The notes beneath the pieces are model-generated. The model had not been told where the DNA came from, did no database searches, and saw only the letters and a list, made by a program, of their open reading frames with translations. A DNA stretch of 64,000 nt from Paraspadella gotoi (lineage: Eukaryota; Animalia; Chaetognatha): the NCBI GenBank assembly GCA_051294375.1, contig CM119265.1, forward strand, positions 18,130,764 through 18,194,763, given 5' to 3'. Numbering within the stretch: position 1 is the stretch's first letter; each line of letters opens with the position of its first letter. A program made the position numbers and the translations under genes. This document shows positions 4,014 through 46,308 of this stretch, piece after piece.

Positions 4014-4224
4014 TATGTCAATGACAGAACCGTTCAATATAAGCAGTCCCTGAGCTTCGGATCAGGCTGTAACACCATGTTACAGGCGGGTTAAGCGCCC
4101 CGTCCCTCTTAACTGCTAGGAGGCCACCGGGCTAGAACCCCGGACCTTAGGGTTGGGAGGCGAATGACTTGCCTCCGGCACCAATGACCGCTGATGAACG
4201 GTTGGTGGATTTTGGTCCACCATA
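4014..4224 (-). mobile_element. Solo LTR-like unit (family C) with tRNA-like head and twister ribozyme
   Basis: GC-rich island in AT-rich DNA. Minus strand starts TATGGTGGA-ccaaaa-TCCACC (terminal hairpin) and ends TGACATA. A-box-like TGGTGCCGGAGG and T-arm/B-box CCGGGGTTCTAGCCCGG precede the twister. Module order matches the TRIM LTRs. No clean TSD. Confidence 0.65.
4042..4117 (-). ncRNA. Twister ribozyme, P5-type permutation
   Basis: Minus strand: AGCAGU(P5)-UAA-GAGG-GA-CGG-GGCGCU-UAA-CCC-GC-CUGUAAC/GUUACAG(P3)-CCUGA-UCCGAAGC-UCAGG(P4/L4)-G-ACUGCU(P5). L4 CCG pairs with CGG (pseudoknot). P2 is one base short, possibly a sequencing deletion. Confidence 0.75.
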
Positions 4225-8989: not shown

Positions 8990-11710
8990 TTGGCGAAAAA
9001 TCCAGGCAAAGCGATCGAGGCGACCAAAAGCGTCCACTACGGCCGCGGACGGGCGGTGCCGTTTCGACGGCCAGCGTTCCACCCCTGTCGACCCGCCTCC
9101 ACTGCCGCTGACGACGGTTTCTCGAGTCCGAGTAGGAAGTAACGAAGATCGGCCGGTTCCGGATTTCCAACGCGCCGCGACCTTGAGGCGCGGGACCACG
9201 ACGTTAGCGTAACGCCCGTGCCGGCGACTCCGCTTCAGGCGCAAAGTCAGGGTCCGAGGCGCTGGTGAACATTTCGGCGGCAGGAGGAGGGCGGACGTGT
9301 CGATCCAACGTCGGGAGCAGCGCCGCGACGACAACTTTGCCCACTGTGAGGAAACCGTCTTCCATCATGAACAGTGCGACGAGGGAGAGCGGGACCGCTG
9401 GTCGGCGCGGAACGACGCCAAACGTGATTCCTGGCGGACTCACGTGGTAGTTTTCTCTTCAGCTACTCTTCTAATCATCGCCATTCATCCTTAGGCTCCG
9501 CAGTCGTCCAAGTGAGATCCATCGGTCAATCGAACGTCGTAGTTAATCATAGTTATCATCATCATCATCATATCATCATCATCATCTCCGTCATCATCAT
9601 CAGGCCATAATGGCTTCAAGAATACTTCAATCCTCTGCAGCCGAGGGTTGGAAATCGTGAGTCTGCGTAGATTAGTTTCTTTTAAATAATTGAAGTCATC
9701 AAACAGACAGACAGGCAAACGAGAGCAAGCAGGCTTTTAGACCCATTTCACTTTGAAAGGGAACGATTTCCTCGCCGGTGTCGGAACAAAAATAAGTTAA
9801 TCTACCCAAAATGGAAGGACGTGCTTGTCGTCTCGACGAATATACGCGGAGAGCGGCGTTGCTCGACGAAGAGGGCGAGGAGGAGCTGGACGTGGACGTG
9901 GAGGACCGAGGAGGAAGAGGATGAGAAAGAAGAGGGCGGGAGAAGGCGAGGAGCGGCGCAGCCTTTACCGAGATCCGACGACGGAGGGAGAAGACGAAGA
10001 AGATGAAGAGGAGGCACGCAGAAGCAAAGCTGGTCAGAAGCCTTTGGCTTAGGTATCAGTTAAATTGCGAGTATATGTGAAATTTAGTGACAACCAAATG
10101 CTTACAAATTAATCGTGTATCCATTTTAAATGAGCTCATTGCCCCTGGCTTGGACAATGGGGACAGGATATAGTGGGTTAAAGGCCGTCATCCCTTTTTA
10201 CAAAAATATCACATACATAGCAGCTTTTAATACGTCATTTTATTATAAATTATACATTATAAAATAGCTAATGCTAAATATGGTAAGAATTGGCAAAAAC
10301 ATTTACGAATACTGTTAGAATGAAATGCTTATGGCATACGGGAGGTAGCCTGTGATACCCGGACGCGGGGTATCACAACTGGCCGATCCTTAGGGCTGCG
10401 GGACCTCAGTGACCGACCTCCGTGCACTGGCCGATGTTATACCGGCACCGTGGGTTAGAGCTCATCTAACTAATGCCAGATCTATTGGACTCCGAAGGCA
10501 TTGTAGTTGTAATATACAGATATATTCCGTCACTGGCCACATCACGCATAGAAGCGGAATATTCGTGGAGAGGCGTCCTGCGGCGTGTGATGTATTCTAG
10601 CCGCTGGCGTTACAAACACATAGACACGAGGCCCGCGCGAAAGACGTGAACAGCAGTGATGGCAGCTTTTAAGGTCTTGCTGCCACACATGTAGCCATAG
10701 ATGCAAATAATCAACTCTCTAACGACCCTTTTCCACCTCAGGTTAAAAAAAAGTCCACCCAACTGACTCTCAATGATCCTCGTCGGCGTTCAATCCTTGA
10801 TTTGCTTGACGCGCCGTTTCTTGGGCTTCGAGCGCCGTTTTCGATGTTTGGCGGCGTCCGTCGGCGTCGTCTTCCTGGGTCTCGCTCGGGACGCGCCGCG
10901 CGATCGGACGGCCGCATGTGCGAGCGCTCTTGGCTATGGGTGATGTTTTATGCAACGCACGGATGAGGCGATCTGGTGGTTCAAATCGAAGGACAAGAAG
11001 CGGGAGCCGGGGTGGTACGAGAACGTTTGCTGGGTTGGTGGCTCAGTGACGGAGAGTCGATCGGTTGTCGAGATTACGGCGCTTAAGATAACGATATTTT
11101 CTTTAAAAAAAATATGTATGTTTCATTAAAAATCAGCATACTAGATCTCCAAATTACTGTTAAATTGGTTAGACTTTAGAAGAAAAAAAAAACATCAATT
11201 AGGTCTAGGTCCCATACAGCCCACACGGGCCGCCGCTAACGTACGCAGCGTCCTGGATTAACAAGAAGAACGCCAACCCAGCAACAAAAAAAAAAAAAAA
11301 AAAAAAAAAACAAAAAAAAAAAACAAAAAAAAAAAAAAAAAAAAAAAACAAAAAAAACTATTCCCGCTTTCAATTAGTCTATCGGATAATTGTACTGTGA
11401 TACTTTATTAAATTTTTGTTACCATGTTTGTTTAAGCTTTCACAAGCCAATCTCCGTTGACACACAAAATAATTTCACTCCTTAATTTTCTCCCTTTAAA
11501 TTTTTTTTTCTTTTCCTTTTCTTCTCTCCATTTCTTTTTCACTCCTAACTACCTTTCCTATTTCCTAATTGCCTTAAACTTCCTGATAAATCTTCACCAC
11601 GAACTTTCACACTAACTTCCGTCGTGGCAATCTTCTCATTCCTACGAGTTCGCTTTACAGTCACCTACTCTCCCTCCTCTCTTCTCTCCTCCTCTCTCTC
11701 TTCTCTCTCT
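8990..11710 (+). repeat. Direct duplicate of 26730-28880 (3' exons of the large membrane-protein gene), rich in insertion errors
   Basis: Colinear by eye, e.g. tccaggcaaagcgatcgaggcgaccaaaag vs tccagcaacgatcgagcgaccaaaag; ends ...GGTGGCTCAGTGA at 11049. Confidence 0.9.
10330..10687 (-). mobile_element. Second, noisy copy of the family B solo LTR
   Basis: TATGGC...GCCACA termini at the same intronic site as 27917-28171. Twister P3/P4/L4 remnants at 10379-10479. The middle is garbled and longer. Confidence 0.7.
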
Positions 11711-23000: not shown

Positions 23001-25685
23001 GTCAATCTTTCTTTTTTGTTGTTTGTGTGATATAGGGAAACACGAACGTTTTAATCGGTAACTACAAAGATTGTTATTAATTAAATTATTTTTATTAGTA
23101 AATTTAAATAAATTTATTTGATTTAGTTAAAATGTCTATGAAATGCTTTGCCGAAAAAATTTTGTCAAATGACACATTGTGGCGGTATATTCACACCGCC
23201 TCACATCCAGCTTTGCACCAACCCAAGCGTTACGTTCTTCCACAATTTTAAAGTTTTCCTCTTCGTTGGCAAAGTGAGGCCGTCCTAGGGTTACTGAGGG
23301 TCGGAAGCCGCAAAGCCAACAGTGAGATGCCCCATCCCAAATGGGCATCACAGGCAACCCGGCTGTTTCAGTAATTAAAAGATTTTTTTTTTCCTTTGAC
23401 GCTTTTTCAAATAATTTATATTACGAGTTATTTCCAATTTTAATTTCAGCGCCTATTCAAACCACCACCCAAACTATTGAATATCCCGTACCGAATGAGA
23501 CGGTGGACGGCGTCGCGAACCGACGGGCTCTGAGGAACCTGACCCCGGCAAGGCGCCTGTTCAAGCGCCCATCGAGGAACCTCCAGGAATCTATTCGAGA
23601 CCCTGCAAAGCCCCTGAAAAAGTGCCCAATGAGGAGCCTTCGAAGGAATCTTTCGGGGTTCTCTCTCAAAGCATCTCTCCAGAGTCTGTCGCTAATCAGA
23701 AGGACGCCAAATTAATGGCAGATTTCTGGGGAAACACGCAAAGCTCCATCGGACAAGACGGCCCAACGGGAAATAATCAAGCAGGTGCGTCTGCGGAAAT
23801 CGTCGGCCTGTGAAGAGTAAAGCGTAGCAAAAATAATGAAATCAAGTAGAATCAAAATTCGAATAGTAGATCATGAAGAGGCTTGTACCACTGAACATTT
23901 TTTAAATAAAAAAAAATTTATTTATTCATTCTATATTTATACTTAGTACTCATCATAGAAAATGTCCAAAGTTTTAAAAAGGTTTTTCTTATTTTGAAAG
24001 CAGATTCGACTTCTTCACGAAGAATTGATAAAAGAAAATGTAACTTTTTTTAAAAAAATTATTTCATTAAGTCGGTCAAAATCCTAAAAAAACTGTTACA
24101 GTTATCCATAATTAAATTTTAAAATAAAAAATATAGTTTTTTTAATTTTTAGCTAACTTTATGAAAGAATTTTTGATTAAGACTCATATTTTCTTTTATC
24201 AACTTTTTTAAGGAATTCAATTCTGCTTCGAAACTTTTTTAAAAATTTTTGAATTTGGGCGAGTACTATGTACTCTGATATAAATATAGGCTAATGCGAA
24301 AATTGAGAAGTGTGGCGGTATATTCACACCGCCTCACGTCCACCATCCTTCAGCCAAATCCATTGGCTCAGAGGGGGAACACACCATCCCAAGTGTAGTG
24401 TTCCATCCACAGTCCTAACGACTTCCCTCTGCGTTGGCAAAGCGGAGACCGTCTAGGGTAACCCGCCAGTGACTGGAGGCGTCACTGAGGGTCGAAGCCC
24501 CCAAAGCCAACAGTGAGATGCCATCCCAATGGGCATCACAGGCAACCGGCCTGTTGCCATAAGTGGTGAGCCCTACTATCGATAACACGCAACCTTTTCA
24601 GGGTACGCTACGACAAAACGCTATGCCCCTGGGGTACGCTACGACAAACGCCTATGCCCCTGGGGTACGCTACGACAAAAACGCCTATGCCCCCACAACT
24701 TCGCGCTCTCTCTCTCTCTCCCCTATATGGTAACAGTCTTGTCGACACCTCTCAGGCTTGAGGAACCTGAGTGATGTCTTGGCCCCGGGGATCTGTGGCG
24801 GTATATTCAACACCGCCTCACGTCCACCATCCTTCAGCCAAATCCATTGGCTCAGAGGGAACACACCATCCCAAAGTGTAGTGTTCCATCCACAGTCCTA
24901 ACGACTTCCCTCTGCGTTGGCAAATCGAGACCGTCCTAGGGTAACGCGCCGTGACTGGAGGCGTCACTGGAGGGTCGGAAGCCCCCAAGCCAACATGAGA
25001 TGCCCCCATCCCCAATGGGCATCACAGGCAACCCGGCTGTTCCATAGAAGTTAAATTTTTTTTTATATATAAATGTTCTTTAATACAAATGGTTCATGAT
25101 CATTGATCAACTATTCGAATTTTGATCTGCAACTTCACGATGCTTTAGTGAAGAGTGATGAAGCAGATGGCCCGGCCAAGCAGAGAACCATTGGAACTCC
25201 AGCCAGTCCCAAGAGGACATCTTGTCCGGAGTACCTCGAGGTCGCGCCTCGAGTAAGTCTGACGTCGGCGCCCTGAAGCATGGCACTCGTCCAAGCCTTT
25301 CTCAAGCGCGCCAAAGCAACAGCGGTCCTCGATGGACGGTCGGGCGGGCTGCGTCATGCGAAGGACTACCAGACCACGGAGGATCGGGTGGGCATTAATA
25401 GAGTGATTTAGTCAGTAGGTTGAGTATCTCAGTACCTTTAAATGTAACACTGTTCGATTTTTTTGCCGGATCGCTTCCAATTCATTTTGTCGGTCCATCG
25501 GTCCGCCCCCAAAAATCTTTTCGGTAAACACTAGATCATGTCAGATCATCGAATTATGATAAATTTGTGGGTGGGTGTGTTTTTTGGTTTTCTGCAGTTA
25601 ATCGTAGAAAGTAGAAAATAGCTAATATGTAGAAGACATTTGGCCGACCAGTGCTAGTCGGTTGGCACAAGAATTGCATGTAGAG

Positions 25686-25728
<43 letters not shown>

Positions 25729-28484
25729 TATAAAACGTCAGATTTTTTGTACAGAATTCACTCTCGCATTCCCGCTCAATATATGTCGATTATCAATTAT
25801 TCTATGTCTCTTTAACTACAGTTCATACATTATTATAGTTAATAGTTAATAATAAAAGTAGAAAATAGCTTTCGTGAGTTTGAAACTTTTAATCAGTTCC
25901 TCCTTTACAAGCCGCCACGAAGATGGATCAGCCAGGGAATGAGCAGAACGGGCGAAGAAGGAAGACAACAATTCGAGCGATGTAATTAAAATTATTATCA
26001 TATTTTAAAAAAAAAAAATGGTGAGAATTTTGAACTTATTTTTTTTATCCTTTTCATCGTTCGCACTCTTCCTTTTCCCACAAACCCTTTATTCTCCAAT
26101 GTCCAGTCTTCCTCACACAATCGATCACCTTCACCCAAACTTCGACGTCGAATCCAACTCGGAGTTGGAGGACGTCCGCACCCGACGATCCATGCGGAAC
26201 CTCGATGGCCAAGGGGCGGAAGTCCGGTCGCGCCCGAGCACAACGGCTTCGGTCCGCTGGGCCTCGTTGCCCCGGGAAAAGCATTGACTCCCAGCGTGTC
26301 TCCATAGACCATGGCGTAGAGATACGAAGACACGTTGCGGGAATCAGAAAAGAGGCCGACCGGAGCGCTGAAGAAACAGTTGTCTCTTTTCCCATTTACA
26401 TAATCAAAGGTGGCTGGATGTCTGGGAATAGATGGGGACTGTTGTAAAATATAGTTGAAGGGAAAGTTAAACATTGAACTAAAGGAATTAAAATTAATCT
26501 AACAGACCCTAGATCCGTTATCAAGATGTTTCAAGTGGTTACTACATAGAAAGCAAAAACAATTTAATTCAGTTCACAGATGAAAAAAAAATCAACATAT
26601 ATTACTAATACCACAAACTATTCGTCACCCCAAGCAGACCAACCGTCGTGAATAAGGACCGTCTCTCGTCGCAGCGACTCTCGCGACCGCAGAGTCCGTC
26701 TCCGAGACCCAACGTTCCCTCGCGCGAGCGAAAAATCCAGCAACGATCGAGCGACCAAAAGCCGTCACCTCGGCGCGGACGGCGGCGTCGACGGCCAGTC
26801 ACCCCGTCGACCCGCTCCACCGCGACTCGTTCTCGAGTCGAGGGAAAGTAACGAAGATCGGCGTTCCGATTTCCAACGCGCCGCGACCTTGAGCGCGGGA
26901 AGTAGCGCCGGCCGTCGCGAAAAGTCGCCGATGCGCGGTGATGAATTTGTGCGGCAGGAGGAGGGGCGGACGTGTCGATCCAACGTCGGGAGCAGCGCCG
27001 CCGACGACAACTTTGCCACTGTGAGAAACCGTCTTCCACATGAAATTCGACGAGAGAGCGGGACGCTGGCGGCGCGGAACGACGCCAACGGATTCCTGCG
27101 GACTCCGTGGAGTTTCTTCAGTCTTCTAATCATCGCCATTCATCTTGGGCGCGCAGTCGTCAAGTGAGATCCATCGGTCATCAACGTCGTAGTTCTCATA
27201 GTAATCATCATCATCACATCATCATCCATCATCATCTCCGTCATCATCATCAGGCTAAGCTTCAAAAACTTCAATCTCTGCAGCCGAGGTGAATCGTGTC
27301 TGCGTTAGATTAGTTCTTTTAAATATTTTGAAGTCATCAACAACAGACAGGCAAACAGACAAGCAGGTTTTTAAGACCCATGTCACTTTGAAAGGGAACG
27401 TTTTCCTCGCGGTGTCGGGAACAAACATAGTCTTTAATCTCCCAAAATGAAGGACGTCGCTGTCGTTCGACGATACGCGAGAGGGCGTTGCTCGACGAAG
27501 AGGGCGAGAGGAGGTGGACTGGACGTGGAGGCGAGGAGGAAAGGATGAGAAAGAAGAGGGCGAGAAGGCGAGGAGCGGCGGAGCCTTTACCGAACCGAGA
27601 GGGAAAGACGAGGAAGATGAAGAGAGGCTGCAGAAGAAGCTGGTCAGAGCCTTTGGCTTTAGTTCAGTTAATGCGAGTATATGAATTGGTACAAACCAAT
27701 GTACAAATTATCGATTCATTTAAAAAAATGAGCAATCTTTGCCCCTGGCTTTGGGACAATGACAGGATATAGTGGGTAAGCCGTCATCCCTTTTACAAGA
27801 TAATATCATAACATAGCAGCTTTAATACGTCATTTATTATTAAATTATACATTAAAAATAGTAATGTAAAAATGGTTAGAATTGCAAAACATTACGAATA
27901 CTGTAGAATGAAATGTTATGGCAAGGAGGATAGCCTGTGATACCGGGACGCGGGTATCTCACTAACTGGCGTAGGGGCCTGCGGACCCTCAGTGACCGCC
28001 TCCCTTCACTGGCATGTTTATACCGGCACCGTCACATTTAAGCCAGAACCGGGAATACCCAGGGATTGAACCCGGGACGCACGGATGGAATGAGATGATT
28101 TAAGCCTGCTCAGCCATTGAACGAGGCTGAGGACGGACAGCAGGAGGCAGCTTTAAGTCTTGCTTGCCACATGTAGCCATTTGCAAGATAAATCAACTCT
28201 CTACCAACCCTTTCCACCTCCAGGTAAAAAAAGCACACTGACTCTCATGATCCTCGTCGGCGTCGAACCTGATTTGCTTGACGCGCCGTTCTTGGCTTCG
28301 AGCGCCGTTTCGATGTTGGCGGCTCGTCGGCGTCGTCTTCTGGTCTCGCTCGGACGCGCGATCGACGCGCGGTGGCGGCGCTTGGAGTTTATGCACGCAC
28401 GGATGGGCGATCTGGTGGTTCAATCGAGACAAGAAGCGGGAGCCGGGGTGGTACGAGACGTTGCTGGGTTGGTGGGCTCAGTGA
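20064..28484 (+). CDS. Large multi-exon low-complexity protein with C-terminal TM helix (left-arm copy)
   Basis: Inverted copy of 29240-37560 with more frameshifting errors. Confidence 0.6.
23178..23373 (+). mobile_element. Degenerate solo LTR of family A with deleted twister core
   Basis: Starts TGTGGCGGTATATTCACACCGCC. Retains GTTGGCAAA, CCGTCCTAGGG, GGGTCGGAAGCC and GCCAAC, but lacks the P2 5' strand and P3. Confidence 0.85.
24433..24511 (+). ncRNA. Twister ribozyme (P5-type) in 5' LTR
   Basis: GUUGGC/GCCAAC P5, GACCG, UAA, CAGUGAC/GUCACUG P3, GGG-UCG(G)AAGC-CCC; single-base deletions relative to the right-arm copy. Confidence 0.7.
24916..24994 (+). ncRNA. Twister ribozyme (P5-type) in 3' LTR
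   Basis: Same motif: GACCG-UCCUAGGG-UAA...GGG-UCGGAAGC-CCC...GCCAAC. Confidence 0.7.
27917..28171 (-). mobile_element. Solo LTR (family B) in the last intron; insertion polymorphism
   Basis: Element-strand termini TGTGGC...GCCATA, as in family A. Probable ATGT TSD. Absent at the equivalent site 29555-29558. A-box TGGCTGAGCAGG and B-box GGGTTCAATCCC. Confidence 0.85.
27966..28046 (-). ncRNA. Twister ribozyme (P5-type) in family B solo LTR
   Basis: CUGGC(P5)-UUAA-AUGU(P2)-GA-CGG-UGCCGGUA-UAA-ACAU(P2)-GC-CAGUGA/UCACUG(P3)-AGGG-UCCGCAGGC-CCCU-AC-GCCAG(P5). P2 and the pseudoknot are fully compensated relative to family A. Confidence 0.78.
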
Positions 28485-29239: not shown

Positions 29240-31808
29240 TCACTGAGCCCACCAACCCAGCAACGTCTCGTACCACCCCGGCTCCCGCTTCTTGTCTTCG
29301 AATTGAACCACCAGATCGCCCATCCGTGCGTGCATAAACTCCAGCGCCGCCACCGCCGCGTCGATCGCGGCGTCCGAGCGAGACCAGGAAGACGACGCCG
29401 ACGACGCCGCCAACATCGAAACGGCGCTCGAAGCCAAGAAACGGCGCGTCAAGCAAATCAGGATGACGCCGACGAGGATCATGAGAGTCAGTGTGGCTTT
29501 TTTTACCTGGAGGTGGAAAAGGGTTGTTAGAGAGTTGATTATCTTGCAATGGCTACATTTCATTTTACAGTATTCGTAATGTTTTTGCCAATTCTTAACC
29601 ATTTTTACATTACCTATTTTATAATGTATAATTTAAATAATAAAATGACGTATTAAAAGCTGCTATGTTATGTTATATTATCTTGTAAAAGGGATGACGG
29701 CCTTAACCCACTATATCCTGTCCATTGTCCAAAGCCAGGGGCAAGATTGCTCATTTTTTTAAATGAATCGATAATTTGTACATTGGTTGTACCAATTTCA
29801 TATACTCGCAATTAACTGAACTAAAGCCAAAGGCTCTGACCAGCTTCTTCTGCTGCCTCTCTTCATCTTCCTCGTCTTCTCCCTCGTCGGTCTCGGTAAA
29901 GGCTCCGCCGCTCCTCGCCTTCTCCGCCCTCTTCTTTCTCATCCTCTTCCTCCTCGCCTCCACGTCCACGTCCACCTCCTCCTCGCCCTCTTCGTCGAGC
30001 AACGCCCTCTCCGCGTATTCGTCGAGACGACAAGCGACGTACCTTCATTTTGGGAAGATTAAGTTTATGTTTGTTCCCGACACCGCGAGGAAATCGTTCC
30101 CTTTCAAAGTGACATGGTGTTTAAAAGCCTGGCTTGTCTGTTTGCCTGTCTGTCTGTTTGATGACTTTCAAATTATTTAAAGAAACTAATCTAACGCAGA
30201 CACGATTTCACCTCGCTGCAGAGATTGAAGTATTTTGAAGCTTAGCCTGATGATGATGACGGAGAGTGATGATGGTGATGATGATGATGATGATGATGTA
30301 TGACTATGATAACTACGACGTTGATGACCGATGGATCTCACTTGACGGACTGCGCGCCAAGATGAATGGCGATGATTAGAAGTACTGAAGAAACTCCACG
30401 GGAGTCGCCAGGAATCCGTTGGCGTCGTTCCGCGCCGCCAGCGTCCGCTTCCTTCGTCGATTTTCATGTGGAAGACGGTTTCCTCACAGTGGGCAAAGTT
30501 GTGTCGCGGGTGTTCCGGTTGGATCGACACGTCCGCCCCTCCTCCTGCCGCACAAATTCATCACCAGCGCCATCGGCCGACTTTCGCGACGCCGGCGCTA
30601 CGTCCCGCGCCTCAAAGGTCGCGGCGCGTTGGAAATCGGAACCGCCGATCTTCGTTACTTTCCTCTCGACTCGAGAAACCGTCGTCGCGGTGGAGCGGGT
30701 CGACGGGGTGGAACTGGCCGTCGACGCCGCCCGTCCGCGCCGAGGTGACGGCTTTTGGTCGCTCGATCGTTTGCTGGATTTTTCGCTCGCGCGAGCGGAA
30801 CGTTTGGTCTCGGAGACGGACTTGCGGTCGCGAGAGTCGCTGCGACGAGAAGACGGCTCCTTTTCACGATCGGTTGGTTCTGCTTGGGGTGACGAATAGT
30901 TTGGTGTGTATTTAGTAATATATTGTTGATTTTTTTTCATCTGTGAACTGAATTAAATTGTTTTTGTCTTTCTATGTAGTAACCACTTTGAAACATCTTG
31001 ATAACGGATCTAGGGCTCTGTTAGATTAAATTTTAATTCCTTTAGTTACCCAATGTTTTAACTTCCCCTTCAACTATATTTTACAACAGTCCCCATCTAT
31101 TTCCCAGACATCCAGCCACCTTTGATTATGTAAATGGGAAAAGGAGACAACTGTTTCTTCAGCGCTCCGGACGGCCTGCTTTTCTGATTCCCCGCAAACG
31201 TTGTCTTCGTATCTCTACGCCTCTGGTCCTTGGAGACACGCTGGGAGTCAATGCTTTTCCCGGGCAACGAGGCCCAAGCGACCGAAGCCGTTGTTGCTCG
31301 CGGCGCGACCGACTTCCGCCCCTTGGCCATCGAGGTCCGCATGGATCGTCGGGTGCGGACGTCCTCCAACTCCGAGTTGGATTCGACGTCGAAGTTTGGG
31401 TGAAAGGTGATCGATTGTGTGAGGGAAGACTGGACATTGGAGAATAAAGGGTTGTGGAAAAGGAAGAGTGCGAACGATGAAAAAGGATAAAAAAATAAGC
31501 TTCAAAATTCTCAACCATTTTTTTTTTTAAATATGATAATAATTTTAAATTACATCGCTCGAATTGTTGTCTTCCTTCTTCGCCCGTTTCTTGCTCATTC
31601 CCTGGCTGATCCATTCTTCGGTGGCGGCTTGTAAAGGAAGGAACTGATTAAAAGTTTCAAACTCACGAAGCTATTTTCTACTTTTTATTATTAACTATTA
31701 ACTATATTAATGATATGAACTGTATTTAAAGAGACATAGAATAATTGATAATCGACATATATTGAGCGGGATTCGAGAGTGAATTCTGTACAAAAAATCT
31801 GACGTTTT

Positions 31809-31848: not shown

Positions 31849-34800
31849 CTACATGACAATTCTTGTGCCAAACCGACTAGCCACTGGGTCGGCCAAATGT
31901 CTTCTACATATTAGCTATTTTCTACTTTCTACGATTAACTGCAGAAAAACCAAAAAACACAACCCACCCACAAAATTTATCATAATTCGATGATCTGACA
32001 TGATCTAAGTGTCTTACCGAAAAGATTTTTGGGGCGGGACCGATGGACCGACAAAATGAATTGGAAGCGGATCCGGCAAAAAATTCGGAACAGTGATTAC
32101 CATTTAAAGGTAACTGAGATACTCCAACCTACTGACTAAATCAACTCTATTAATGCCCACCCGATCCTCGTTGGTCTTGGTAGTCCTTCGTCAATGACGA
32201 GCCCCGCCCGACCGTCCCCATCGAGGACCGCTGTTGCGTTTGGCGCGCTTGAGAAAGGCTTGGACGAGTGCCATGCTTCAGGGCGCCGACGTCAGACTTA
32301 CTCGAGGCCGGCGACCTCGAGGGTACTCCGGACAAGATGTCCTCTTGGGACTTGGCTGGAGTTCCAATGGCTCCTGCTTTGGCCCGGCCATCTGCTTCAT
32401 CACTCTTCACTAAAGCGTCGTGAAAGTTGCAGATCAAAATTCGAATAGTTGATCAATGATCATGAACCATTTTGTATTAAAGAACATTTATATATAAAAA
32501 AAAAATTAACTTCTATGGCAACAGCCGGGTTGCCTGTGATGCCCATTGGGGATGGGGCATCTCACTGTTGGCTTGGGGGCTTCCGACCCTCAGTGACGCC
32601 TCCAGTCACTGGCGCGGTTACCCTAGGACGGTCTCGTTTGCCAACGCAGAGGGAAGTCGTTAGGACTGTGGATGGAACACTACACTTGGGATGGTGTGTT
32701 CCCCCTCTGAGCCAATGGATTTGGCTGAAGGATGGTGGACGTGAGGCGGTGTGAATATACCGCCACAGGATCCCCGGGCCAAGACATCACTCAGGTTCCT
32801 CAAGCCTGAGAGGTGTCTGACAAGACTGTTACCATATAGGGGAGAGAGAGAGAGAGCGCGAGTTGTGGGGGCATAGGCGTTTTTGTCGTAGCGTACCCCA
32901 GGGGCATAGGCGTTTGTCGTAGCGTACCCCAGGGCATAGGCGTTTGTCGTAGCGTACCCTGAGAAGGTTGCGTGTTCGATAGTAGGGCTCACCACTTATG
33001 GCAACAGCCGGGTTGCCTGTGATGCCCATTGGGATGGGGCATCTCACTGTTGGCTTTGGGGGCTTCCGACCCTCAGTGACGCCTCCAGTCACTGGCGCGG
33101 TTACCCTAGGACGGTCTCCGCTTTGCCAACGCAGAGGGAAGTCGTTAGGACTGTGGATGGAACACTACACTTGGGATGGTGTGTTCCCCCTCTGAGCCAA
33201 TGGATTTGGCTGAAGGATGGTGGACGTGAGGCGGTGTGAATATACCGCCACACTTCTCAATTTTCGCATTAGCCTATATTTATACAGAGTACATAGTACT
33301 CGCCCAAATTTCAAAATTTTAAAAAAGTTTCGAAAGCAGAATTGAATTCCTTAAAAAAGTTGATAAAAGAAAATATGAGTCTTAATCAAAAATTCTTTCA
33401 TAAAGTTAGCTAAAAATTAAAAAAAACTATATTTTTTATTTTAAAATTTAATTATTGGATAACTGTAACAGTTTTTTAGGATTTTGACCGACTTAATGAA
33501 ATAATTTTTTTTAAAAAAAGTTACATTTTCTTTTATCAATTCTTCGTGAAGAAGTCGAATCTGCTTTCAAAAATAAGAAAAAAACCTTTTTAAAACTTTG
33601 ACATTTTCTATGATGAGTACTAAGTATAAATATAGAATGAATAAATAAATTTTTTTTATTTAAAAATGTTCAGTGGTACAAGCCTCTTCATGATCTACTA
33701 TTCGAATTTTGATTCTACTTGATTTCATTATTTTTGCTACGCTTTACTCTTCACGAGGCCGACGATTTCCGCAGACGCACCTGCTTGATTATTTCCCGTT
33801 GGGCCCGTCTTGTCCGATGGAGCTTGCGTGTTTCCCCAGAAATCTGCCATTAATTTGGCGTCCTTCTGATTAGGCGACAGACTCTGGAGAGATGGCTTTG
33901 AGAGAGAACCCCGAAAAGATTCCTTCGAAGGCTCCTCATTGGGCACTTTTTCAGGGGCTTTTGCAGGGTCTCGAATAGATTCCCTTGGAGGTTCCTCGAT
34001 GGGCGCTTGAACAGGCGCCTTGCCGGGGTCAGGTTCCTCAGAGCCCGTCGGTTTCGCGACGCCGTCCACCGTCTCATTCGGTACGGGATATTCAATAGTT
34101 TGGGTGGTGGTTTGAATAGGCGCTGAAATTAAAATTGGAAATAACTCGTAATATAAATTATTTGAAAAAGCGTCAAAGGATAAAAAAAATCTTTTAATTA
34201 CTGAAACAGCCGGGTTGCCTGTGATGCCCATTGGGATGGGGCATCTCACTGTTGGCTTTGCGGGCTTCCGACCCTCAGTAACCCTAGGACGGCCTCACTT
34301 TGCCAACGAAGAGGGAAAACTTTAAAATTGTGGAAGGAACGTAACGCTTGGGTTGGTGCAAAGCTGGATGTGAGGCGGTGTGAATATACCGCCACAATGT
34401 GTCATTTGACAAAATTTTTTCGGCAAAGCATTTCATAGACATTTTAACTAAATCAAATAAATTTATTTAAATTTTACTAATAAAAATAATTTAATTAATA
34501 ACAATCTTTGTAGTTACCGATTAAAACGTTCGTGTTTCCTAATATCACACAAACAACAAAAAAGAAAGATTTGACACAATAATAAGGATTTAATAATGAT
34601 TAAAAGCTAAATTTCTCAGGACATTACTATTTCTTGAAAGGTTTTAAATTTAAAGTTTATTAAAGTTTTAAAACATTAAGTTTCACCTTACGAAACATCA
34701 CAAGAATCTCAACCGAAATTTACTCACCCTGTTCAGAGTCCTGGCCGTCATCGTCATCGCCCATCGCGTGCATAGACGTTTCCATCCCCTTGGTCGTTGT

Positions 34801-35806
34801 TTTCTGTCTCTCCCATATTTGGGCCGATCCTTCCATTTGTTCCATTTGTTCCATTTGTTCCCTCCTTTCATTCACCGACGATGTCGAGGATGCGCGATCT
34901 CCGATTCCATCCGGTTCCTTAAACTCCTCCGTCAGAAAAAGAAGCGCCTGAAACGACTCCCCGACGCTCGAGCCGCTCGTCGATGGACTGTAGGGGTTGT
35001 TGCGATTTGTGGAAGCGTTTCTCGAGGGCCTCGGCATCGAGCCACTCTCCGGCGATCTAAATTCCTTCGCCTTGTCGCATTCCATCTCAGTGACCTTGGT
35101 GTAGCTCCGCGTCGAGATCGGTGGCCTTTTACGGATTTTAGGCCTGACGACTCGAGACTCTTCCGTTTTTGACGACGCGATGCTCATCACGGCTCCGTCG
35201 GCCACGGAATCCGGCGCCACCGACTCGGATTTACTCTCGATCGACTCGGATTCCACGACGGAACTTTTTTCCGTCGACGACGCCGCCAGCTCGTTACGCC
35301 CCTCGGCGTCCAAGTTGTTGTTGTTGGCGTTGATGTCGAGGACGTCGCGGTGTAGTCGGTGATAATCCCTCGATTCTCCAAGGCTCCGAGGATCCTTCGG
35401 AAGCTGCGTCTCTTCGTCCAAAGCGGTCTCGTTTACATCTACTCTAATTGCCGACGATGGGCTGTTCGTTTCTTTCGCAATCAGGTTTTCTTCGATTCGA
35501 ACGGGTAAGTGACTAATCTGATCGGATTTTTTGCTCTTTTTCAACACGTCTAACGCTTCGCTTACAAACGGGTTCTTTCTCCGTTTGGTTGCCTCTTTAT
35601 TCTCACGACTACGCTTCTTCCCTTCGAGGTGACCAACCTCCTTACTTCCATCGATCACTTCCTTCTCTTTAACTCCTCTGCACGCGTGGCGACTCCATGC
35701 GCCTTCTTCCTTCCCGCGCACCTTTTCGCCGCTCGTCGTAGATTCCGGATTTTCTCGTCCCAAATTCTCCATTTCCGTCGTCTTCATCGACCGATTCCAA
35801 CGTCGC

Positions 35807-35844
<38 letters not shown>

Positions 35845-37560
35845 GGCGACTCTCTCCTCGCTCTTCAAATCCTCCCTCCTCATCCTCCTCCTCTTCCTCC
35901 ACCTCCTCACCGCCTCCACGATCTTGCTACCCTCGTCGTCGCTGGTGTCGTCGTCGTCATCGCGTCCGGCCAAACAGGACGAACGCGTCCTCTGACGGCA
36001 GCTTCGTCGCTTTCGTCGAACGTTTCTGGCGTCTTCGTCGTTGTCGTCGTCGTCGTCGGGAGATGTGAGGCGATAAAATTGGATTCCTGCGGCACCGTTC
36101 TCCATCGATGTCTCGTTCTCCCTCAACGCTTCGTTCTCCCAAGACGGCTCGTTCTCAATAGCCTGTGTCCTTCTTGCCAATTCTTCTTGGAGAACAGTTT
36201 GTCTCTTTCCTCTATCAACTCCCAGTGTTTTCTTCGGCGAAACATGTCTGCCATCACGCATCCACGCATCTCCGTCGTTGAATTCTGCTTCTCCATAAGA
36301 TTGAGATAAGATAACTGGCGGGATAGTGACGTCATTCCCTCCTCGTTTTTCTCCATTCGCTTCTCTCTCTTCTTTTTCCATTTTCCTTTCTCGCTCCGTC
36401 AGCCTCTCTCCTTCAATTCTCTTTTCCTCGAATTTTCTTTCCTCCTCTTTCAATTCTCTCATCCTCTCATTCCTCGTCCTCTCTTCTCTAAATCTCCTTT
36501 CTTCCCTCAATCTTCCCTCTTCTTTACTTCTCTCCAGCCTCCGATCCTCCCTTTCTTCTCTTATACTCTCTTCTCTTCTCCATCTCCCCCCCTCCCTTTC
36601 CCTCTCCCTTCTACCCAAACTCGACGCCTCCCATCTCTTCTTCGACTCCTCGTCTTTCCTCAACTTCTCCTTCACTCTGTCCATGATGCCGCGCAGCGAC
36701 GACAACTTCCTCTCGAACATTTCGTCCAACTCTCGATCGCTGTCGAGCGTCGACGACGTTGCGGCCGTCGTCGTCGTCAACGTTGCAGACGCCGGCGTCT
36801 TTTCAGCGCTGTAGCGGGCATTGTGTATCGACGCCGCGCCATTTCGAGACGAAGGAGCGCCGATATCGTTCCGGTTGGCGCCGAAGACATCCTTGTCGGG
36901 CTCTGAGAGATACTGACTTCGAAAAGAATTGTTTTCGATTCTGGAATAATCTCGAAAACCGCCCTCGCCGCTTCGTTGGTCCAAAGACGAAGCGGCTCCT
37001 TGAAGACCGGAAACGACCTCGGTCTCAAAGCTACGACCGGCACCGTCGTTGACTTCTTGAATGCCATAATGTCGTCCGCGATCGGCGGTGCCAGTAATCT
37101 CGGGCGCCGCGAAAAAACTTCCGGTCGACGCGGCACCGTAATTGTCAGCAAACGCTAATCCGAAGCCGGTTAAGGATTCCCGATGGGCGTCGCTTGCGGT
37201 GCGAAACGTTTCGGAAGACTTCAAGGCTGAGATCATGAGGAGGAGGTTGTCGATCTTCGCTTCACAGAGTCGAGCGTCGAGATCGTCCAAGTCGAGACTC
37301 GTCGTTGTCTGTGGTGGAAGAAGAAGTGAAAGGAGGTAAATACAATATTGCACAGTTCTCTTAGTCTTAAGCTTATCTATGTGTTATTTTGTTATTTTTC
37401 TTTCTTTTTCGATGGGGAGTTATCCCCCTCTCTCTCTCTTTTCTGTATCCATCTTTCTAACTCCCTCAAGAACTTCCTTTTTTAACCTTACGACGACATC
37501 AGTGAAGATAATGGCCACGATGGCGGCAAGAACAATTTTGACAACGACTTAACGACGTCG
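29240..37560 (-). CDS. Large multi-exon secreted/membrane-type protein: E/R/K-rich coiled-coil and S/T/P-rich regions, C-terminal TM helix; function unknown
   Basis: 2.6-kb exon (ORF 34720-37353; acceptor CAG|ACAACG, donor GG|GTGAGT). An upstream hydrophobic exon reads KIVLAAIVAIIFTDVV|gtaag. Further exons at ~33780-34125, ~32160-32410, ~31120-31430, ~30340-30940 and ~29840-30040. The last exon is VKKATLTLMILVGVILICLTRR...WYETLLGWWAQ*. Start codon and the joining of all exons into one gene are uncertain. Confidence 0.6.
32567..32645 (-). ncRNA. Twister ribozyme in 3' LTR; predicted cleavage between 32620 (U) and 32619 (A)
   Basis: GUUGGC-AAAC-GAGA-CCG-UCCUAGGG-UAA-CCGC-GC-CAGUGAC..GUCACUG-AGGG-UCGGAAGC-CCCC-AA-GCCAAC. 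Confidence 0.75.
32868..32960 (-). repeat. Three ~31-bp tandem repeats inside the TRIM
   Basis: GGGGTACGCTACGACAAACGCCTATGCCCCT x3 (also ~24600-24693). Confidence 0.9.
33049..33130 (-). ncRNA. Twister ribozyme in 5' LTR; predicted cleavage between 33103 (U) and 33102 (A)
   Basis: GUUGGC-AAA-GCGG-A-GA-CCG-UCCUAGGG-UAA-CCGC-GC-CAGUGAC..GUCACUG-AGGG-UCGGAAGC-CCCC-AAA-GCCAAC. P2 is CCGC/GCGG. Pseudoknots are CGG/CCG and GC/GC. Confidence 0.8.
34199..34396 (-). mobile_element. Degenerate family A solo LTR (right-arm copy of 23178-23373)
   Basis: Same internal deletion as the left-arm copy, so the deletion is unlikely to be read noise. Confidence 0.85.
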
Positions 37561-37830
37561 CTTTAATCTGACTTCGAAACGGAAACTTTGAGAAAATAAA
37601 AACAAAAAATTCGTAATTGGATGTTTCCCCTTTTTGTTTTATTTGGTAAAAATATTCTACAAAATTTAATTTGTCTTATAAGAATAGCACACGTACTACG
37701 TAATGAGATTTGAAAAATCTGAAGTAAAAATACTATAGCTCACTTAATAAAGTCAAACACTATTTGGTCAACACATAAGATGAATCCTAAAATAATACAA
37801 ATTTATTTAATTGTAGTAATGAACAAAGTT

Positions 37831-40566
37831 TCACAAGTCGATTCCATTTCTCCTTAAGACGGAGCGAAGATCGTCTTCCCTGTCCTCGTCTCCAGCATTC
37901 TCCATCAAATCGACAACAACTTGCAACGATTTATGAGCCGTCGCTTCGTTGTTGTCACCAGAGGTCGAGAGAATGTCGTAGGTCATCCGGTCGGTGCTCT
38001 AAATTATACAAATTAAAGAAATGACTCGACGTAATGACGAGAAAAAGTTTAGAAAATTTATTTTGCACAACCTGTAGCAAGATAAGAAAATTGTGAAGGA
38101 AGCCCGAAGTGTGCATGCAACGGATTTTGCCCCAAGGGAATTCCTTGCGCCCTCTATAGATACCGACGTTGCTCACGACGTCCCAAGGAAAGGACGTGTC
38201 TTCCGCCGCCGCGAAAGCCGCTGTCGGACCCGTTTCCCATTCCTTCATCGCCTGAAAAACAAAAGAACAGTTGGATTCGGTTCCGGTCTGACTTCTGAAG
38301 CGATCTTTTATCGGTTCGATCGGATTTATTCACCTGGATGGTTAGAAGGTGCTGCTTTTCTTCAAACGCCTGGTCCAGTTGACGCTTCACTTCCCGAGCG
38401 TGGTCCCAAAGGTTCGTTGATAAGGCAACTTCGTTTTTAATGATTAACTGTGGATCAGGAATTTAACAATCTTTTGACGAGCCGCAATTACAGTTTAAAG
38501 AATTTAGCAGAATCTCACATCAATCACGTAGAACGCGCAGAGAGATCCGATGGGATTATTTAGTCGCGGCCGCATATCCACTGGGATTACTACGCGATCA
38601 CATTAAGTTCCGATATCCAATCATCGATGTTTTAAAGTAATCAATGTGAGGATACGTTATTACCTGTAAAGTGGTCTTTTATTCCATTAAATTCCTCCCC
38701 GACTTGCAGCGCTCTAAGTACGCAAACAGAAAAGTGGCGAGCGGCGATCGCTAAACTTCCCACTGTCACCTTTGTTTAAAAAAAAAAAGAAAACCATGAG
38801 GCGACAAAAAGAGCCATCTTTACAATTACCACCACCCAATCCGGTTCCCACCTTTTCCTTCCTGCAACGACTCTTCAACTTCTCCAGATTAGCCTCCGCT
38901 CCTTCGTGGAAGAAAGTCTTTGCCAGCGGCAAGTCGAGCGAATCGTTGGCGACGGCTTCGCTGACGTCAAATGGAATCGGGTCGCCGAGCGTCTTCGACA
39001 TTTCGATACGCGTTTCCGTCATTTTGTCGAGAATGGAATCGTGTCCGGAGAGAAATGATTCTTCGTCCGTCGACCCTCTCAAGTTTCAGAGGGAATTTAG
39101 TGTTTTATCGCGTTCAGTGAATTTGTCATGATTTTCAATATTAGTATTAACCTTAACGGCAGAGGTACTGGTATTACATCCACCCCTTTATCGAAATCCT
39201 CGTAAAATTCTAATATGTCAGACATCGCGTGCATCCCTGGGACATTGTAACAATACATTAAGTGATTAACTGTTAAATTCAAATTTAAAATGAAGCAATG
39301 GGAATCTGTACCGGATCTGCTATCCGCGACCGCGTGATGATAGGTGTTCATGACAACGTAGCCATTTGTCATTTTTATGAGAGTACATCTGTCACGAGAA
39401 AGAAAATAAGGGAGTGGACTTNNNNNNNNNNATAAAATTCAGCTCCTTGTATACTGATACTGGGCTGAGTACTTTATAGTATTTTCCGATCTAATACTTA
39501 AGCCTTAAGGGAGTAGTTTTGTCATACAATTGAAACATTTTTTGAAATGAAATTGAAATGAAATTGGTACAACCAATATTATACTACTTCATTGATAGGG
39601 AATCCAGGTACTCTGGGAGTGAATTAACGAGACTGTGAGAGAGTCTTGATTGAAAGCTTGCAGGGATCTGCAATGTCATTATCTTGTAAGAGTGATGGAT
39701 GCCATAAACCACCAAAGCCTGACCAAATTCAGTGGCAACATAACTTATTTATTAAATGAATGGATAACTTTTATATTGTTGTACCAATTTCATAACTAAA
39801 CAATAAAGATCATCCATTAAAATTTAGTCGGAAATCCTTTACTCACCTGTAAAGCGGCTTAAAAGAATCGTAATCCCACTCTTTGTTGGTCGCTTCCTCA
39901 ACCAAATCCCAAACTTCTTCCAAATTCCCGCCCACACTTTCATCCACATTTCCATCCACACATTCGTCTAAGCGTTCGTTGTTTTTTCCGTCTCCTGTGC
40001 CTCGGCCACGCCCACACCGCGATCGATCTAAGAAGCAGAAGACGTCATCAAAATCTTCGGCGGGAAGCCAACGAATTGGTGAAGAATGAAGATGGACGCG
40101 AGTGCGGAGGTGAGGCTGTTTGTAAATCGTCGCTCTAAGATCGGTGATGAAATATTTAGATTAAAAATAAAATAGTAGTAAAATACTGGAAATAAAGGAA
40201 CAAATATATAATTTGTTTCAAAAAAAAAAAGAATTAAACCAAGTTTGGCAATTGTTGAAGAAAAAGCAAAAAAAAAGCAACTTTCAAACCTGACAGATTT
40301 TTGAAAAGCGTCAACTTTAAATTCGAAATCCGGATTCGTCTCCAAATGAAAGTGAGTTTATGTGGAATCTCACGACCCTTCGGGACTATGTTATATTTCG
40401 TGTTAACAATAAATGTAAAAATGTATAAGATGGAAATTTGAACAGCTTGGTTTACTTACCTTGCATCGAGGGAATAGGTAGAAGAAATGTTTTTTCATAA
40501 TGTCCCAAAGGACGGTTGAGCCAAAGATTTTTATCTTTGGGGACCAAATCCCAGCCATGAACTCAT
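37831..40566 (-). CDS. Spliced CoA-dependent acyltransferase (condensation-domain / alcohol acetyltransferase / PapA5-like)
   Basis: About 11 short exons give motifs in the expected order: MSSW..RPLGHYEKTF, KQPHLRTRV, EEATNKEWDYDSFKPLYR, YHHAVADSRS|GMHAMSDILEFY (HHxxxD at 39322-39339), PVPLP, LKSRCRKEK|VTVGSLAIAA, PVDMRPRL, LWDHAREVKRQL, VVSNVG, ending GIDL-TGA. Confidence 0.8.
39558..39793. mobile_element. MITE with ~21-bp terminal inverted repeats; dispersed family
   Basis: ATGAAATTGGTACAACCAATA ... TATTGTTGTACCAATTTCAT. Related fragments at ~10075-10230, 16009-16080, 27680-27822, 29660-29800, 43915-44005, 47438-47525, 48971 and 57440-57695. Confidence 0.7.
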
Positions 40567-41431
40567 TTTTTCGCGGATAAGTATTAAATGATAGGATTTG
40601 TATTTGCAATTACACACGAAAAACTGATGGAAAAAATCTTTTTTAAAAAAATAAAGAATTTTTGGGACAGAAATAATAATTCGCGTAGCTAAATTTATCT
40701 ATCTTCTTTTATTTCACTTATGAAATATTAGGGACTTTTTTGATGAAAGTTTTTGTTTTTTATTTGTATTCATTTCTGATTTTTTTTATTTCTCGTTCTG
40801 ATTTAAGATTATTTCGTACGATAGGAAACCAGAAAAACAATACTGAAAAAAAAAAACCGGTAAAACTTGAAACTTGTTTGGATCTCCAAAAAAGCATTCT
40901 CAGCTGAAGTTATTCGTCATTCTTTAACTTTCAGAATAAGAAAAGACTAAGAGAGGTGAACAACCTCAGTTTTGTGACTTTAAACGCCAAATACTGCTAA
41001 ATATGTCGCGAACAAATAATTAATATTATTCTTATGACGGGTTTCGCTTTTCAGCCAGCATCGACGCTGTTGGAAACAGTGACACAGGATACGACGACAA
41101 AGACGACGAAAAAAGACGTCGACGATAATGAAACTACGACGACGATAATGAGGACGACGAACAAAAGAGGAACGTAACGACGATAACCATTTAACAAATG
41201 ACGAACAAGGAAACATTAGAAGAAAACAACTCGACGGGAAATACGCGGGAAATCTTTGAGATGCTCTCTCTCTCTCTGTCTCGCTCTCTCTCCTCGTCCT
41301 TCCTCTCTCCTCTCTCGCTCTCTCTCTCGCTCTCTTCTCTCTCTCGCTCTCTCGTCTCGCTCTCTGCTCTCGCTCTCTGCTCTCGCTCTCGGCTCCTCTT
41401 CTCTCTCTCTCATATTCACTAAGAGACTTAC

Positions 41432-42445: not shown

Positions 42446-42982
42446 TTTTCGTCGTCGCGCGAATCGCTCTTTTCGTTCGTCGGTTCCTCGTTCCTTCGTT
42501 CGTACATTCATCCGTTCTTTCGTTCGTTCGCGCCACGTACGAAGAAAATGAGAAACGACGCTTTGTAAAAGACGAGATTAAAGAAAGTTTTTTTTTTTTG
42601 TGATCGTTGAACGCGAACAATAAGCATAATGATGATATCCTTTTGTTTCAAATAAGAAAACTAAACATAAAAATGAAAAAGGAAAAAATAAAGGAACAAA
42701 ATTAATATAAAATAATAAAAATTATAATGCTTCTTTTGTGAATCTTTTAATCGCATAATTAACCAATTAATCATCAATCAATCATCCTCGAAATAATTAT
42801 TTAATAATTAAACTTATAATACTTTAAAAAAATGAAATTGGGTTTTGCGAGTCACGGGCAGACGCTTCTGAGATCGAGTCGCGATTCAATTCCTAGTCCG
42901 GATGTGACGGAGACCCGGATTACAGAAAAGGAGATCCGGGTTTTCGTAAAATCCGGTTGGTTATTAAAATTTAAAGTCAGTA

Positions 42983-44485: not shown

Positions 44486-44522
<37 letters not shown>

Positions 44523-45892: not shown

Positions 45893-45943
45893 GAAAACGG
45901 AGCGACGTTTCTTTGGCCGCGACCTCTCTCTCTCTCTCTCTCC

Positions 45944-45982
<39 letters not shown>

Positions 45983-46014
45983 TCTCACTCTCTCTCTTCT
46001 CTCTCTCTCTCCTT

Positions 46015-46053
<39 letters not shown>

Positions 46054-46177
46054 ACTCTCTTCTCTCTCTCTCTTCCTCTTCTCTCTTTTTCCCGCTCCAG
46101 CCTTTTAATTTTTATATTTTAAAACGGAGCGAACGTTTCTTTGGCCGCCGACCTCTCTCTCTCTCTCTCCACTTCTC

Positions 46178-46211
<34 letters not shown>

Positions 46212-46269: not shown

Positions 46270-46308
<39 letters not shown>

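Follow-up and report, generated by a model that had tools for sequence, protein, structure and literature searches.

A short non-coding LTR element with predicted twister ribozyme folds in its terminal repeats

Structure and abundance of the element

The stretch analyzed here, referred to in its full length as the window, comprises 64,000 nucleotides of Paraspadella gotoi contig CM119265.1 (assembly GCA_051294375.1, positions 18,130,764 to 18,194,763). On its minus strand, at 33252-32514, lies a 739-bp non-autonomous element of the long terminal repeat (LTR) type, designated family A, and each of its LTRs contains a sequence that is predicted to fold, completely or in large part, as a twister self-cleaving ribozyme. 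The LTRs, 256 bp (33252-32997) and 254 bp (32767-32514) in length and both of the form TGTGGC...GCCATA, are identical at 252 of 253 aligned bases, with four gap positions. The element is bordered by a 4-bp target-site duplication (TSD), GAAG/GAAG; its primer-binding site (PBS), TGGTGAGCCC, begins 2 nt beyond the 5' LTR; and its coding capacity is nil, the longest ATG frame being 79 amino acids. An earlier note, made from the sequence of the window, had described a 739-bp non-coding element with near-identical LTRs, a 4-bp TSD and a PBS, and all of these were recovered at the same coordinates. A hammerhead reading of the LTR ribozyme was also considered and was rejected, since the hammerhead core (CUGANGA, GAAA) was found on neither strand of the element and the twister fold occupies that place. 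The parts of the element are as follows.

32514..33252, minus strand: whole element of family A, 739 bp
32997..33252, minus strand: 5' LTR, 256 bp, TGT...ATA ends
32514..32767, minus strand: 3' LTR, 254 bp
33253..33256, minus strand: TSD, 5' copy (GAAG)
32510..32513, minus strand: TSD, 3' copy (GAAG)
32985..32994, minus strand: PBS TGGTGAGCCC, of CsRn1 type (tRNA-Trp) by its likeness to the elements in PMC2582038
32768..32996, minus strand: 229-bp non-coding interior, containing a CT microsatellite and, at 32868-32964, three repeats of 30-33 bp
32771..32775, minus strand: weak run of five purines resembling a polypurine tract (PPT)
24311..25046, plus strand: second copy of the same insertion, in a duplicated block with the same flanks

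The copy at 24311-25046 was rejected as an independent jump, because it shares its flanks with the copy at 33252-32514 and sits in a duplicated block; the two are, therefore, the same insertion, and the many 1-nt gaps between them indicate that the assembly is indel-prone. Duplicated blocks are seen in several parts of the window, namely 19052-27916 versus 38602-29555 (95%), 34689-44510 versus 52488-62375 (90%), and 8993-10451 versus 26728-28032 and 29556-30786 (81-84%). The large blocks, one of which is inverted, differ mostly by small indels, and may represent segmental duplication or unmerged noisy haplotypes. The family A element is itself enclosed in an AT-rich stretch, 32433-33713, with inverted-repeat arms at 32433-32455/33691-33713 (96%) and 32458-32503/33650-33695 and a further inner inverted repeat; this stretch is high-copy in the reads and resembles a miniature inverted-repeat transposable element or a foldback DNA element.

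The abundance of family A was examined in the listed read sets, 13 of 15 of which contain the stretch of the element or part of it (at least half of its words in eight); none is recorded as RNA. In the DNA read set X4, 9,860 contigs aligned on 32400-33400, 3,467 of them at 99% identity or higher. Contigs that run past the element numbered 118 and 83 for one LTR end and 50 for the other, and their flanks disagree (0.42-0.44), amounting to more than 200 different insertion junctions; read depth does not measure copy number. Family A is a young, high-copy family. Many flank junctions were also seen in read set X9 (its RNA status is a guess, as is that of X10), where the ratio of element to flank depth is like that of the DNA run. 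It is to be noted that at 32684, 32686, 33169 and 33171, in the tRNA-like part described below, both LTRs of the window copy differ from 80-95% of the aligned depth, which places this copy in a minority subtype.

The predicted twister fold and its relatives in the window

The segments of the two LTRs to which the twister fold was assigned, and the short P1 sequences within them, are listed here.

33049..33130, minus strand: twister fold of type P5, 5' LTR; predicted cut U33103/A33102, putative catalytic G33116
32567..32645, minus strand: twister fold, 3' LTR; predicted cut U32620/A32619; P2 with 2 of 4 pairs in the window copy
33104..33111, minus strand: P1, self-complementary octamer (8/8), 5' LTR; predicted partner, the P1 of the other LTR
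32621..32628, minus strand: P1 octamer, 3' LTR

In the 5' LTR all parts of the fold can be formed with standard pairs only, i.e., P5 of 6 bp, P2 of 4 bp, P3 of 7 bp, P4 of 3 bp, and the pseudoknots T1 and T2 of 3 and 2 bp, respectively; the core consists of UAA, GA and the L4 loop UCGGAAGC. Inside the 6-bp P5, the elements follow the order of the type-P5 consensus, P2'-GA-T1'-P1-UAA-P2-GC-P4-L4. This consensus order was derived from a control set of 16 phage loci picked by twister pattern, 14 of which matched Rfam Twister-P5. The 14 phage-contig twisters of this type (L008-L014, L017-L023) exceed the Rfam cut-off, and two of them have a P3 stem.

A strict descriptor of the P5-type twister, which was written after the motif had been seen and recovers 10 of the 16 control loci, matches at U33103; it found nothing in 288,094 shuffled LTRs and 29 matches in 2,085 shuffled windows (0.014 per window). 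A relaxed descriptor, written after the families listed below had been seen, yields exactly four sites in the window, 33103, 32620, 28020 and 4093, all of them inside LTR-type pieces, where 0.010 would be expected per shuffled window (27 matches in 2,584). The two sites outside family A belong to LTR families of their own, and half a twister persists in a decayed LTR.

27917..28171, minus strand: solo LTR E, 65% identical to A; cut U28020; perfect A and B boxes at 28116 and 28071; altered L4; empty site near 29555
10330..10690, minus strand: F, noisy duplicate of the E insertion
4038..4224, minus strand: G, solo-LTR-like; boxes at 4183 and 4138; twister at about 4041-4118, cut U4093, P1 hexamer; flanks match at 3 of 4 bases
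34198..34396, minus strand: decayed short LTR C, in which deletions have removed the A box and that half of the twister which comprises the cut site, P2 and P3
23178..23373, plus strand: D, duplicate of C

LTR E is identical to A at 161 of 247 aligned bases, and the two could be compared for covariation. Over 24 pairs, 46 of 48 cells are paired, P2 being omitted from the count because of a register shift; four pairs (one in P5, one in T1 and two in P1) are altered on both sides, and no such pair arises when the partners are slid by 1-3 columns. The P2 of E has all 4 pairs, in a sequence different from that of A. Family G cannot be aligned with either A or E, and its predicted twister nevertheless comprises P5, GA, T1, UAA, GC, an 8-bp P3, a 5-bp P4 and a canonical L4, in which new sequences of P3, P4, P5 and T1 all pair. 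A model built from four phage twisters ranks G first (13 bits, E 0.25), and with a model derived from A and E it is the best match in the window outside these two families (16 bits, E 0.07); a 13-sequence MAFFT alignment of the phage loci was out of register and was left unused. The core letters GA, (U)AA, GC and U-nnn-AA-GC are complete in families A and G, E departing from them in L4; both pseudoknots are formed in A and G, and P4 is paired. Overall, the predicted helices, both pseudoknots and the core letters are kept between families of 65% or no detectable identity. As a separate observation, a hairpin of 6-7 bp lies 2-3 nt inside the 5' end of both LTR A (33230-33249) and LTR G (4203-4222), although their sequences are unrelated.

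Variation within family A was read from 1,836 contigs of X4 and 112 of X9 that cover the twister, while X13 and X14 provided no contig aligned to it. Eleven positions carry other letters in at least 1%: five lie in or beside the P3 loop, two are both sides of one P3 pair, one is in P2 and three are in the P1 centre. The P3 pair changes from A-U to G-C (33 and 43 contigs; the linkage of the two sides is not established), and the variable P2 position retains a G-U pair. None of the 11 falls on the 24 core positions, with a rough P of 0.016, or 0.006 when well-covered positions are considered.

Several observations speak against an intact and working twister, and they concern the sequences as well as the models. 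The 3' LTR twister of the window copy has only 2 of the 4 P2 pairs and misses the strict descriptor, and the P2 of the 5' LTR is complete by virtue of one extra base (33118) ahead of GA. This base is absent from most family A copies (188,261 of 242,680 in depth for X4, and 11,880 of 12,164 for X9), so that in the majority, with 3 of 4 P2 pairs, the first pair of P2, directly beside the cut site, is replaced by a C.A mismatch. For the 82-nt core, a fold other than the twister is predicted to have the lowest energy, 9 kcal/mol below the twister helices (pseudoknots unscored). In the relatives, L4 is changed and one T2 pair is lost in E, the P2 strand of G is 3 nt long with 2 pairs, and C/D have lost half of the ribozyme; the shuffle control for the A/E covariation is also weak with two sequences (33/500). 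Rfam at the gathering score calls no twister in the window, nor any at E up to 10 over 32400-34600, and it has no match for G. The phage-twister model does not find A, and the A/E model finds none of the 16 phage loci. A bacterial or phage twister with the T1 letters of family A could not be confirmed, as 5 of 89 pattern matches passed the descriptor and Rfam called none of ten tested T1-pattern loci or of four further loci. Matches of family motifs at three viral and four metagenome loci, which had no BLAST likeness to the element, were judged to be chance.

When a 106-nt stretch was submitted to Rfam by itself, twister-P1 was the better of two matches, at 15.2 bits and E 0.6 (cut-off 67), spanning GC-P3-P4-L4. 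The Rfam test suggested in the earlier note was, in this sense, weakly passed on the isolated stretch and failed at the gathering score. Models of this kind cannot score altered T1 letters as pairs, and these letters, together with the reduced P1 and the inserted P3, may account for the low score. As the Rfam match is weak, the assignment of the twister fold rests on covariation and conservation. That the likeness is a product of chance, or a non-catalytic LTR structure such as a packaging or promoter hairpin, would agree with the lack of a significant Rfam match and with descriptors composed after the fact. It would also agree with one stray strict match in the window, at 37324-37375 (plus strand; a partial copy lies near 20257 on the minus strand), which is AT-rich, lacks P3, contains one bulge and was treated as chance, although 0.014 would be expected per window. 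The blank result in the shuffled LTRs, the four loci that all fall on LTR-type pieces, and the top rank of twister-P1 on the isolated stretch render this explanation extremely unlikely, and we consider it very probable that the twister fold of family A is real.

A real fold could still be a dead passenger, captured with a tRNA-derived short interspersed nuclear element or a Penelope-type repeat at the origin of a Helenus-like terminal-repeat retrotransposon in miniature (TRIM), whose mobility would be that of a plain TRIM. Every copy in the window is indeed defective, by P2 mismatches in A, the L4 change in E or the half-deletion in C/D, and Helenus families are mobile without a ribozyme (PMC10886601). 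In contrast, the paired and core positions are conserved across divergent families, the read variants avoid the twister core, and the assembly is indel-prone, numerous 1-nt gaps being seen between copies of a single insertion; a dead passenger is, therefore, very unlikely in our view, and the twister is probably active in at least part of family A. The claim of the earlier note that each LTR holds a full twister fold thus holds for the 5' LTR, where all parts pair, but not for the 3' LTR; its cut sites, U33103 and U32620, stand as predicted sites, 483 nt apart. The broader description, in which a non-autonomous LTR element of high copy number has one twister fold per LTR, is well supported, with its more than 200 different flanks in X4.

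A palindromic P1, a tRNA-type promoter and a predicted circular RNA

In all three families P1 is fully self-complementary (8/8 in A, 8/8 in E and 6/6 in G), and the duplexes predicted between two copies amount to -11.0, -10.9 and -8.3 kcal/mol, respectively, while no stable hairpin is predicted. In the phage control loci, P1 hairpins of 6-11 bp are found in 11. The central dinucleotide of P1 is UA in A, CG in E, CG in G, and GC in a read variant of A, the two changes of which occur in 25 and 21 contigs and both in a single contig once. The reduction of P1 to a palindrome in all three families points to cleavage as a dimer. There is precedent in another ribozyme class, as the hammerheads of Penelope-like elements and amphibian retrozymes have a palindromic short stem and are cut as dimers (PMC6765202, PMC7229834). 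For the twister, dimers are mentioned only as a crystal artefact in the available part of PMC5408937, and a natural dimeric twister was not found in the literature searched. Also, the twister tolerates the loss of P1 and cleaves without it (PMC5408937), so that a dimer is not required in principle and the ribozyme may be monomeric.

Such a monomeric twister, with P1 absent or minimal (two pairs and a C-N-N-G tetraloop), would still make family A a twister retrozyme, with the palindrome as an incidental property. It would accord with the documented cleavage without P1 (PMC5408937, PMC8501958), and the outer pairs of a short hairpin would also look palindromic. The two central bases, however, would be unpaired in a hairpin, and yet they are Watson-Crick self-complementary in all four variants (UA, CG, CG, GC), for each of which the chance is 0.25; the cis hairpin is, moreover, predicted to cost energy. 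On these grounds, the monomeric twister appears quite unlikely, and a dimeric P1 helix between LTR copies is, by a small degree, the favored arrangement.

Upstream of each twister, the A and B boxes of a tRNA-type promoter for RNA polymerase III (Pol III) were recognized, and the predicted cuts downstream delimit a monomer.

33155..33199, minus strand: boxes of the 5' LTR, the A box starting at 33199 (mismatch-free) and the B box at 33163 (one mismatch), with a spacing of 36 nt
32670..32714, minus strand: the same A and B boxes, 3' LTR
32620..33102, minus strand: predicted 483-nt cut-to-cut monomer, composed of one permuted LTR and the internal region, with no terminal repeat

When scored against consensus box patterns, the boxes of A (one mismatch, spacing 36 nt) were equaled in 1 of 300 LTR shuffles, those of E (no mismatches, 45 nt) in 0 of 300, and those of G (two mismatches, 45 nt) in 21 of 300. 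ARAGORN found no tRNA in the LTRs at default settings; at a lowered threshold it made a call in every LTR, which was discarded as unspecific. The sense strand of the element has no T4 run, the first one being 8 nt beyond the 3' LTR, and this absence is compatible with read-through by Pol III. Taken together, these features make Pol III drive of family A fairly probable. The TGT...ATA ends, the tRNA-Trp-type PBS and the 4-bp TSD are the set found in the CsRn1 clade of animal Gypsy elements, which have TGT...ATA ends, a TGGTGAG/CCCC PBS for tRNA-Trp and a 4-bp TSD (PMC2582038), and by this analogy a CsRn1-clade Gypsy element is the likely helper. Certain contigs of X9, X10 and X11 match only the PBS block or the PBS and LTR end (32964-33005) and then diverge, and they are possible candidates for sister families or helpers; in one contig of X11, 18 nt across the PBS are duplicated.

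These features can be joined into a model as follows. Transcription by Pol III would start about 7 nt ahead of the A box (near 33206) and, with no T4 run in the element, would read through both LTRs up to the T run in the flank. In the transcript, the P1 octamers of the two LTRs would pair in an 8-bp duplex that completes both active sites; single LTRs would, therefore, cut poorly, and complete elements would cut at both ends, as we propose. Cleavage would leave 5'-OH and 2',3'-cyclic-phosphate ends on a 483-nt RNA, and since this product has no terminal repeat, first-strand transfer would be impossible on its linear form. Its two ends would together make up a single twister and would be kept in place for joining into a circle by a tRNA ligase, e.g., RtcB; this ligase circularizes animal retrozyme RNAs in vitro (PMC7229834). 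A helper reverse transcriptase, primed by tRNA-Trp at the PBS, would then cross the junction and rebuild a full LTR without strand transfer, and the helper integrase would create the 4-bp TSD. The circular fold of the predicted monomer has a z of -3.0, with 0 of 100 shuffles as stable. A 506-nt contig of X11 runs once round the element unit, which is no evidence for a circle, as two LTRs yield the same assembly path.

The model has its own difficulties. The predicted monomer is 59% paired, as opposed to more than 70% for plant and animal retrozymes (PMC4918200), and the opposite strand folds better. The tRNA-type promoter of family A is decayed, its B box is off consensus and the box spacing is short, and the PPT consists of 5 purines only, 3 nt ahead of the 3' LTR. 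A helper was not found: 150 of the 283 window frames were compared with Pfam, without a match, and the PBS pattern had 0 matches in viral contigs. An active twister could alternatively serve as a 3'-end former of a linear LTR RNA, in which case the main cut would be in the 3' LTR, a terminal repeat of about 100 nt (start to cut) would permit normal strand transfer, and no circle would be made. The moderate pairing of the monomer would fit such a role, as would the lack of a T4 terminator in the element, where many of the Helenus LTRs examined have a T run behind the tRNA part, and the competing fold could delay the 5' cut. On the other hand, the same ribozyme is in both LTRs, hence the 5' copy should cut as well; the P1 duplex would couple the two cuts; and plant LTR retrozymes, in which hammerheads have the same layout, yield circles (PMC4918200). 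In the light of these arguments, the 3'-end former is regarded as unlikely, and by analogy a circle is, with slight preference, the copied form of family A. For the reading as a whole, namely a Pol III-driven non-coding LTR element, paired twisters that cut together, and a 483-nt circle copied by a likely CsRn1-clade helper, we would put the chances at even.

Relation to known elements and remaining features of the window

Family A resembles plant LTR retrozymes (PMC4918200) in being non-coding, with a predicted self-cleaving ribozyme in each LTR, a 4-bp TSD, a PBS suited to a Gypsy helper (its PPT being weak), and a predicted cut-to-cut monomer. It differs from them in its ribozyme (a twister, theirs being a type-III hammerhead), its PBS (tRNA-Trp/CsRn1-type versus tRNA-Met), the size of the monomer (483 nt as predicted versus 600-1000), the presence of a tRNA-type promoter and a likely animal host, as suggested by the CsRn1-type ends and the 4-bp TSD; moreover, circles have been shown for the plant elements, while here they are predicted. 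With Helenus/TRIMp3 (PMC10886601) it shares the TRIM form (311-1263 bp in theirs), a tRNA-derived A/B-box unit per LTR, a PBS, a 4-bp TSD in animals and a likely Gypsy helper, and with some Helenus also the tRNA-Trp primer. In family A a twister, and no T run, comes after the tRNA unit. The available part of that paper describes no ribozyme, a word that is found there once, in a reference; six twister-loop motifs searched in its supplement gave two matches, both internal and none in LTRs, although line breaks can hide matches. Pol III transcription is unvalidated for Helenus itself (PMC10886601). The autonomous 5-kb elements of the CsRn1 clade, PwRn1 and AgCR (PMC2582038), have the ends, PBS and TSD of family A, which itself has no coding part, and no ribozyme is reported for them in the literature searched.

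The ribozyme itself is similar to the type-P5 twister (RF02684) and twister-P1 (RF03160) in the order P2'-GA-T1'-P1-UAA-P2-GC-(P3)-P4-L4-P4, in having all core letters in A, and in both pseudoknots. It departs from RF02684 in that P1 is a 6-8-nt palindrome instead of a 6-11-bp hairpin, P3 is present, T1 is CGG:CCG or CCG:CGG instead of CCC:GGG, and the score is below the Rfam cut-off. The dimeric hammerheads of Penelope-like elements and amphibian non-LTR retrozymes (PMC7229834, PMC6765202) likewise have the helix beside the cut site reduced to a palindrome; their tandem copies pair to cut and are circularized in the manner of RtcB, of which the counterpart here is predicted. They are, however, of another ribozyme class and are tandem repeats without LTR ends, PBS or 4-bp TSD, with a Penelope helper. 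The T-variant twisters of Schistosoma Perere-3 (PMC8501958) also belong to an animal retrotransposon and also have P3 and a relaxed P1, but they are single type-P1 copies at the 5' end of a non-LTR element, where the cut sets the 5' end and no circle is formed.

A 2026 preprint (10.64898/2026.07.22.740005) still defines LTR retrozymes by a type-III hammerhead and as belonging mainly to plants, and twisters have been reported in the non-LTR elements Perere-3 and RTE (PMC8501958, PMC7761336) and in viroid-like circles (10.1101/2022.07.19.500677, PMC12542633). A twister within an LTR was not found in the mostly open-access literature searched; the earlier note, too, was not aware of a twister-based LTR retrozyme. 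Two reports call for caution about novelty: in a plant survey, type-P1 twisters are enriched near active Copia and Gypsy elements (PMC11933835), and 1.6% of Schistosoma twister variants have an LTR-type reverse transcriptase downstream (PMC8501958). The well-supported description is that of a twister-bearing LTR element, which is retrozyme-like, falls outside the retrozyme definition for want of a hammerhead, and fits Helenus by its promoter. The earlier note was thus right about an LTR element with twister folds, but overlooked the tRNA-type promoter, the self-complementary P1, the CsRn1-type ends and two further twister LTR families.

It is tentatively suggested, and with some doubt, that these families belong to an old, diversified group of animal LTR retrozymes, i.e., Pol III TRIMs with a circular RNA and an obligately dimeric 'double twister', the P1 helix of which forms between LTRs. 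As standard Rfam scans miss the motif, such animal elements may be widespread and unnoticed. Animal retrozymes have so far been non-LTR Penelope passengers, and LTR retrozymes have been plant hammerhead elements; if the model is true, the strategy of an LTR plus a ribozyme-made circle would have arisen again with another catalyst, helper clade and polymerase, and family A would join two groups that have been described apart, the retrozymes and Helenus/TRIMp3. In a dimeric twister the permuted P5 form would have a biological role, namely to link the two cuts to each other and to keep the ends in position to be ligated, and circular-RNA engineering would gain a simple switch. The model is also relevant to a proposed origin of viroid-like circles from retroelements; many of these circles contain twisters.

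Elsewhere in the window, four frames that were searched returned no homologue. A low-complexity frame of 887 codons at 34720-37383 (minus strand), rich in E, R, D and S, has no Pfam family, no homologue for its first 300 residues, and frameshifted copies in the duplicated blocks. Lastly, a CT-rich tandem array of variable unit length occupies 45894-47137 and 63539-63998.

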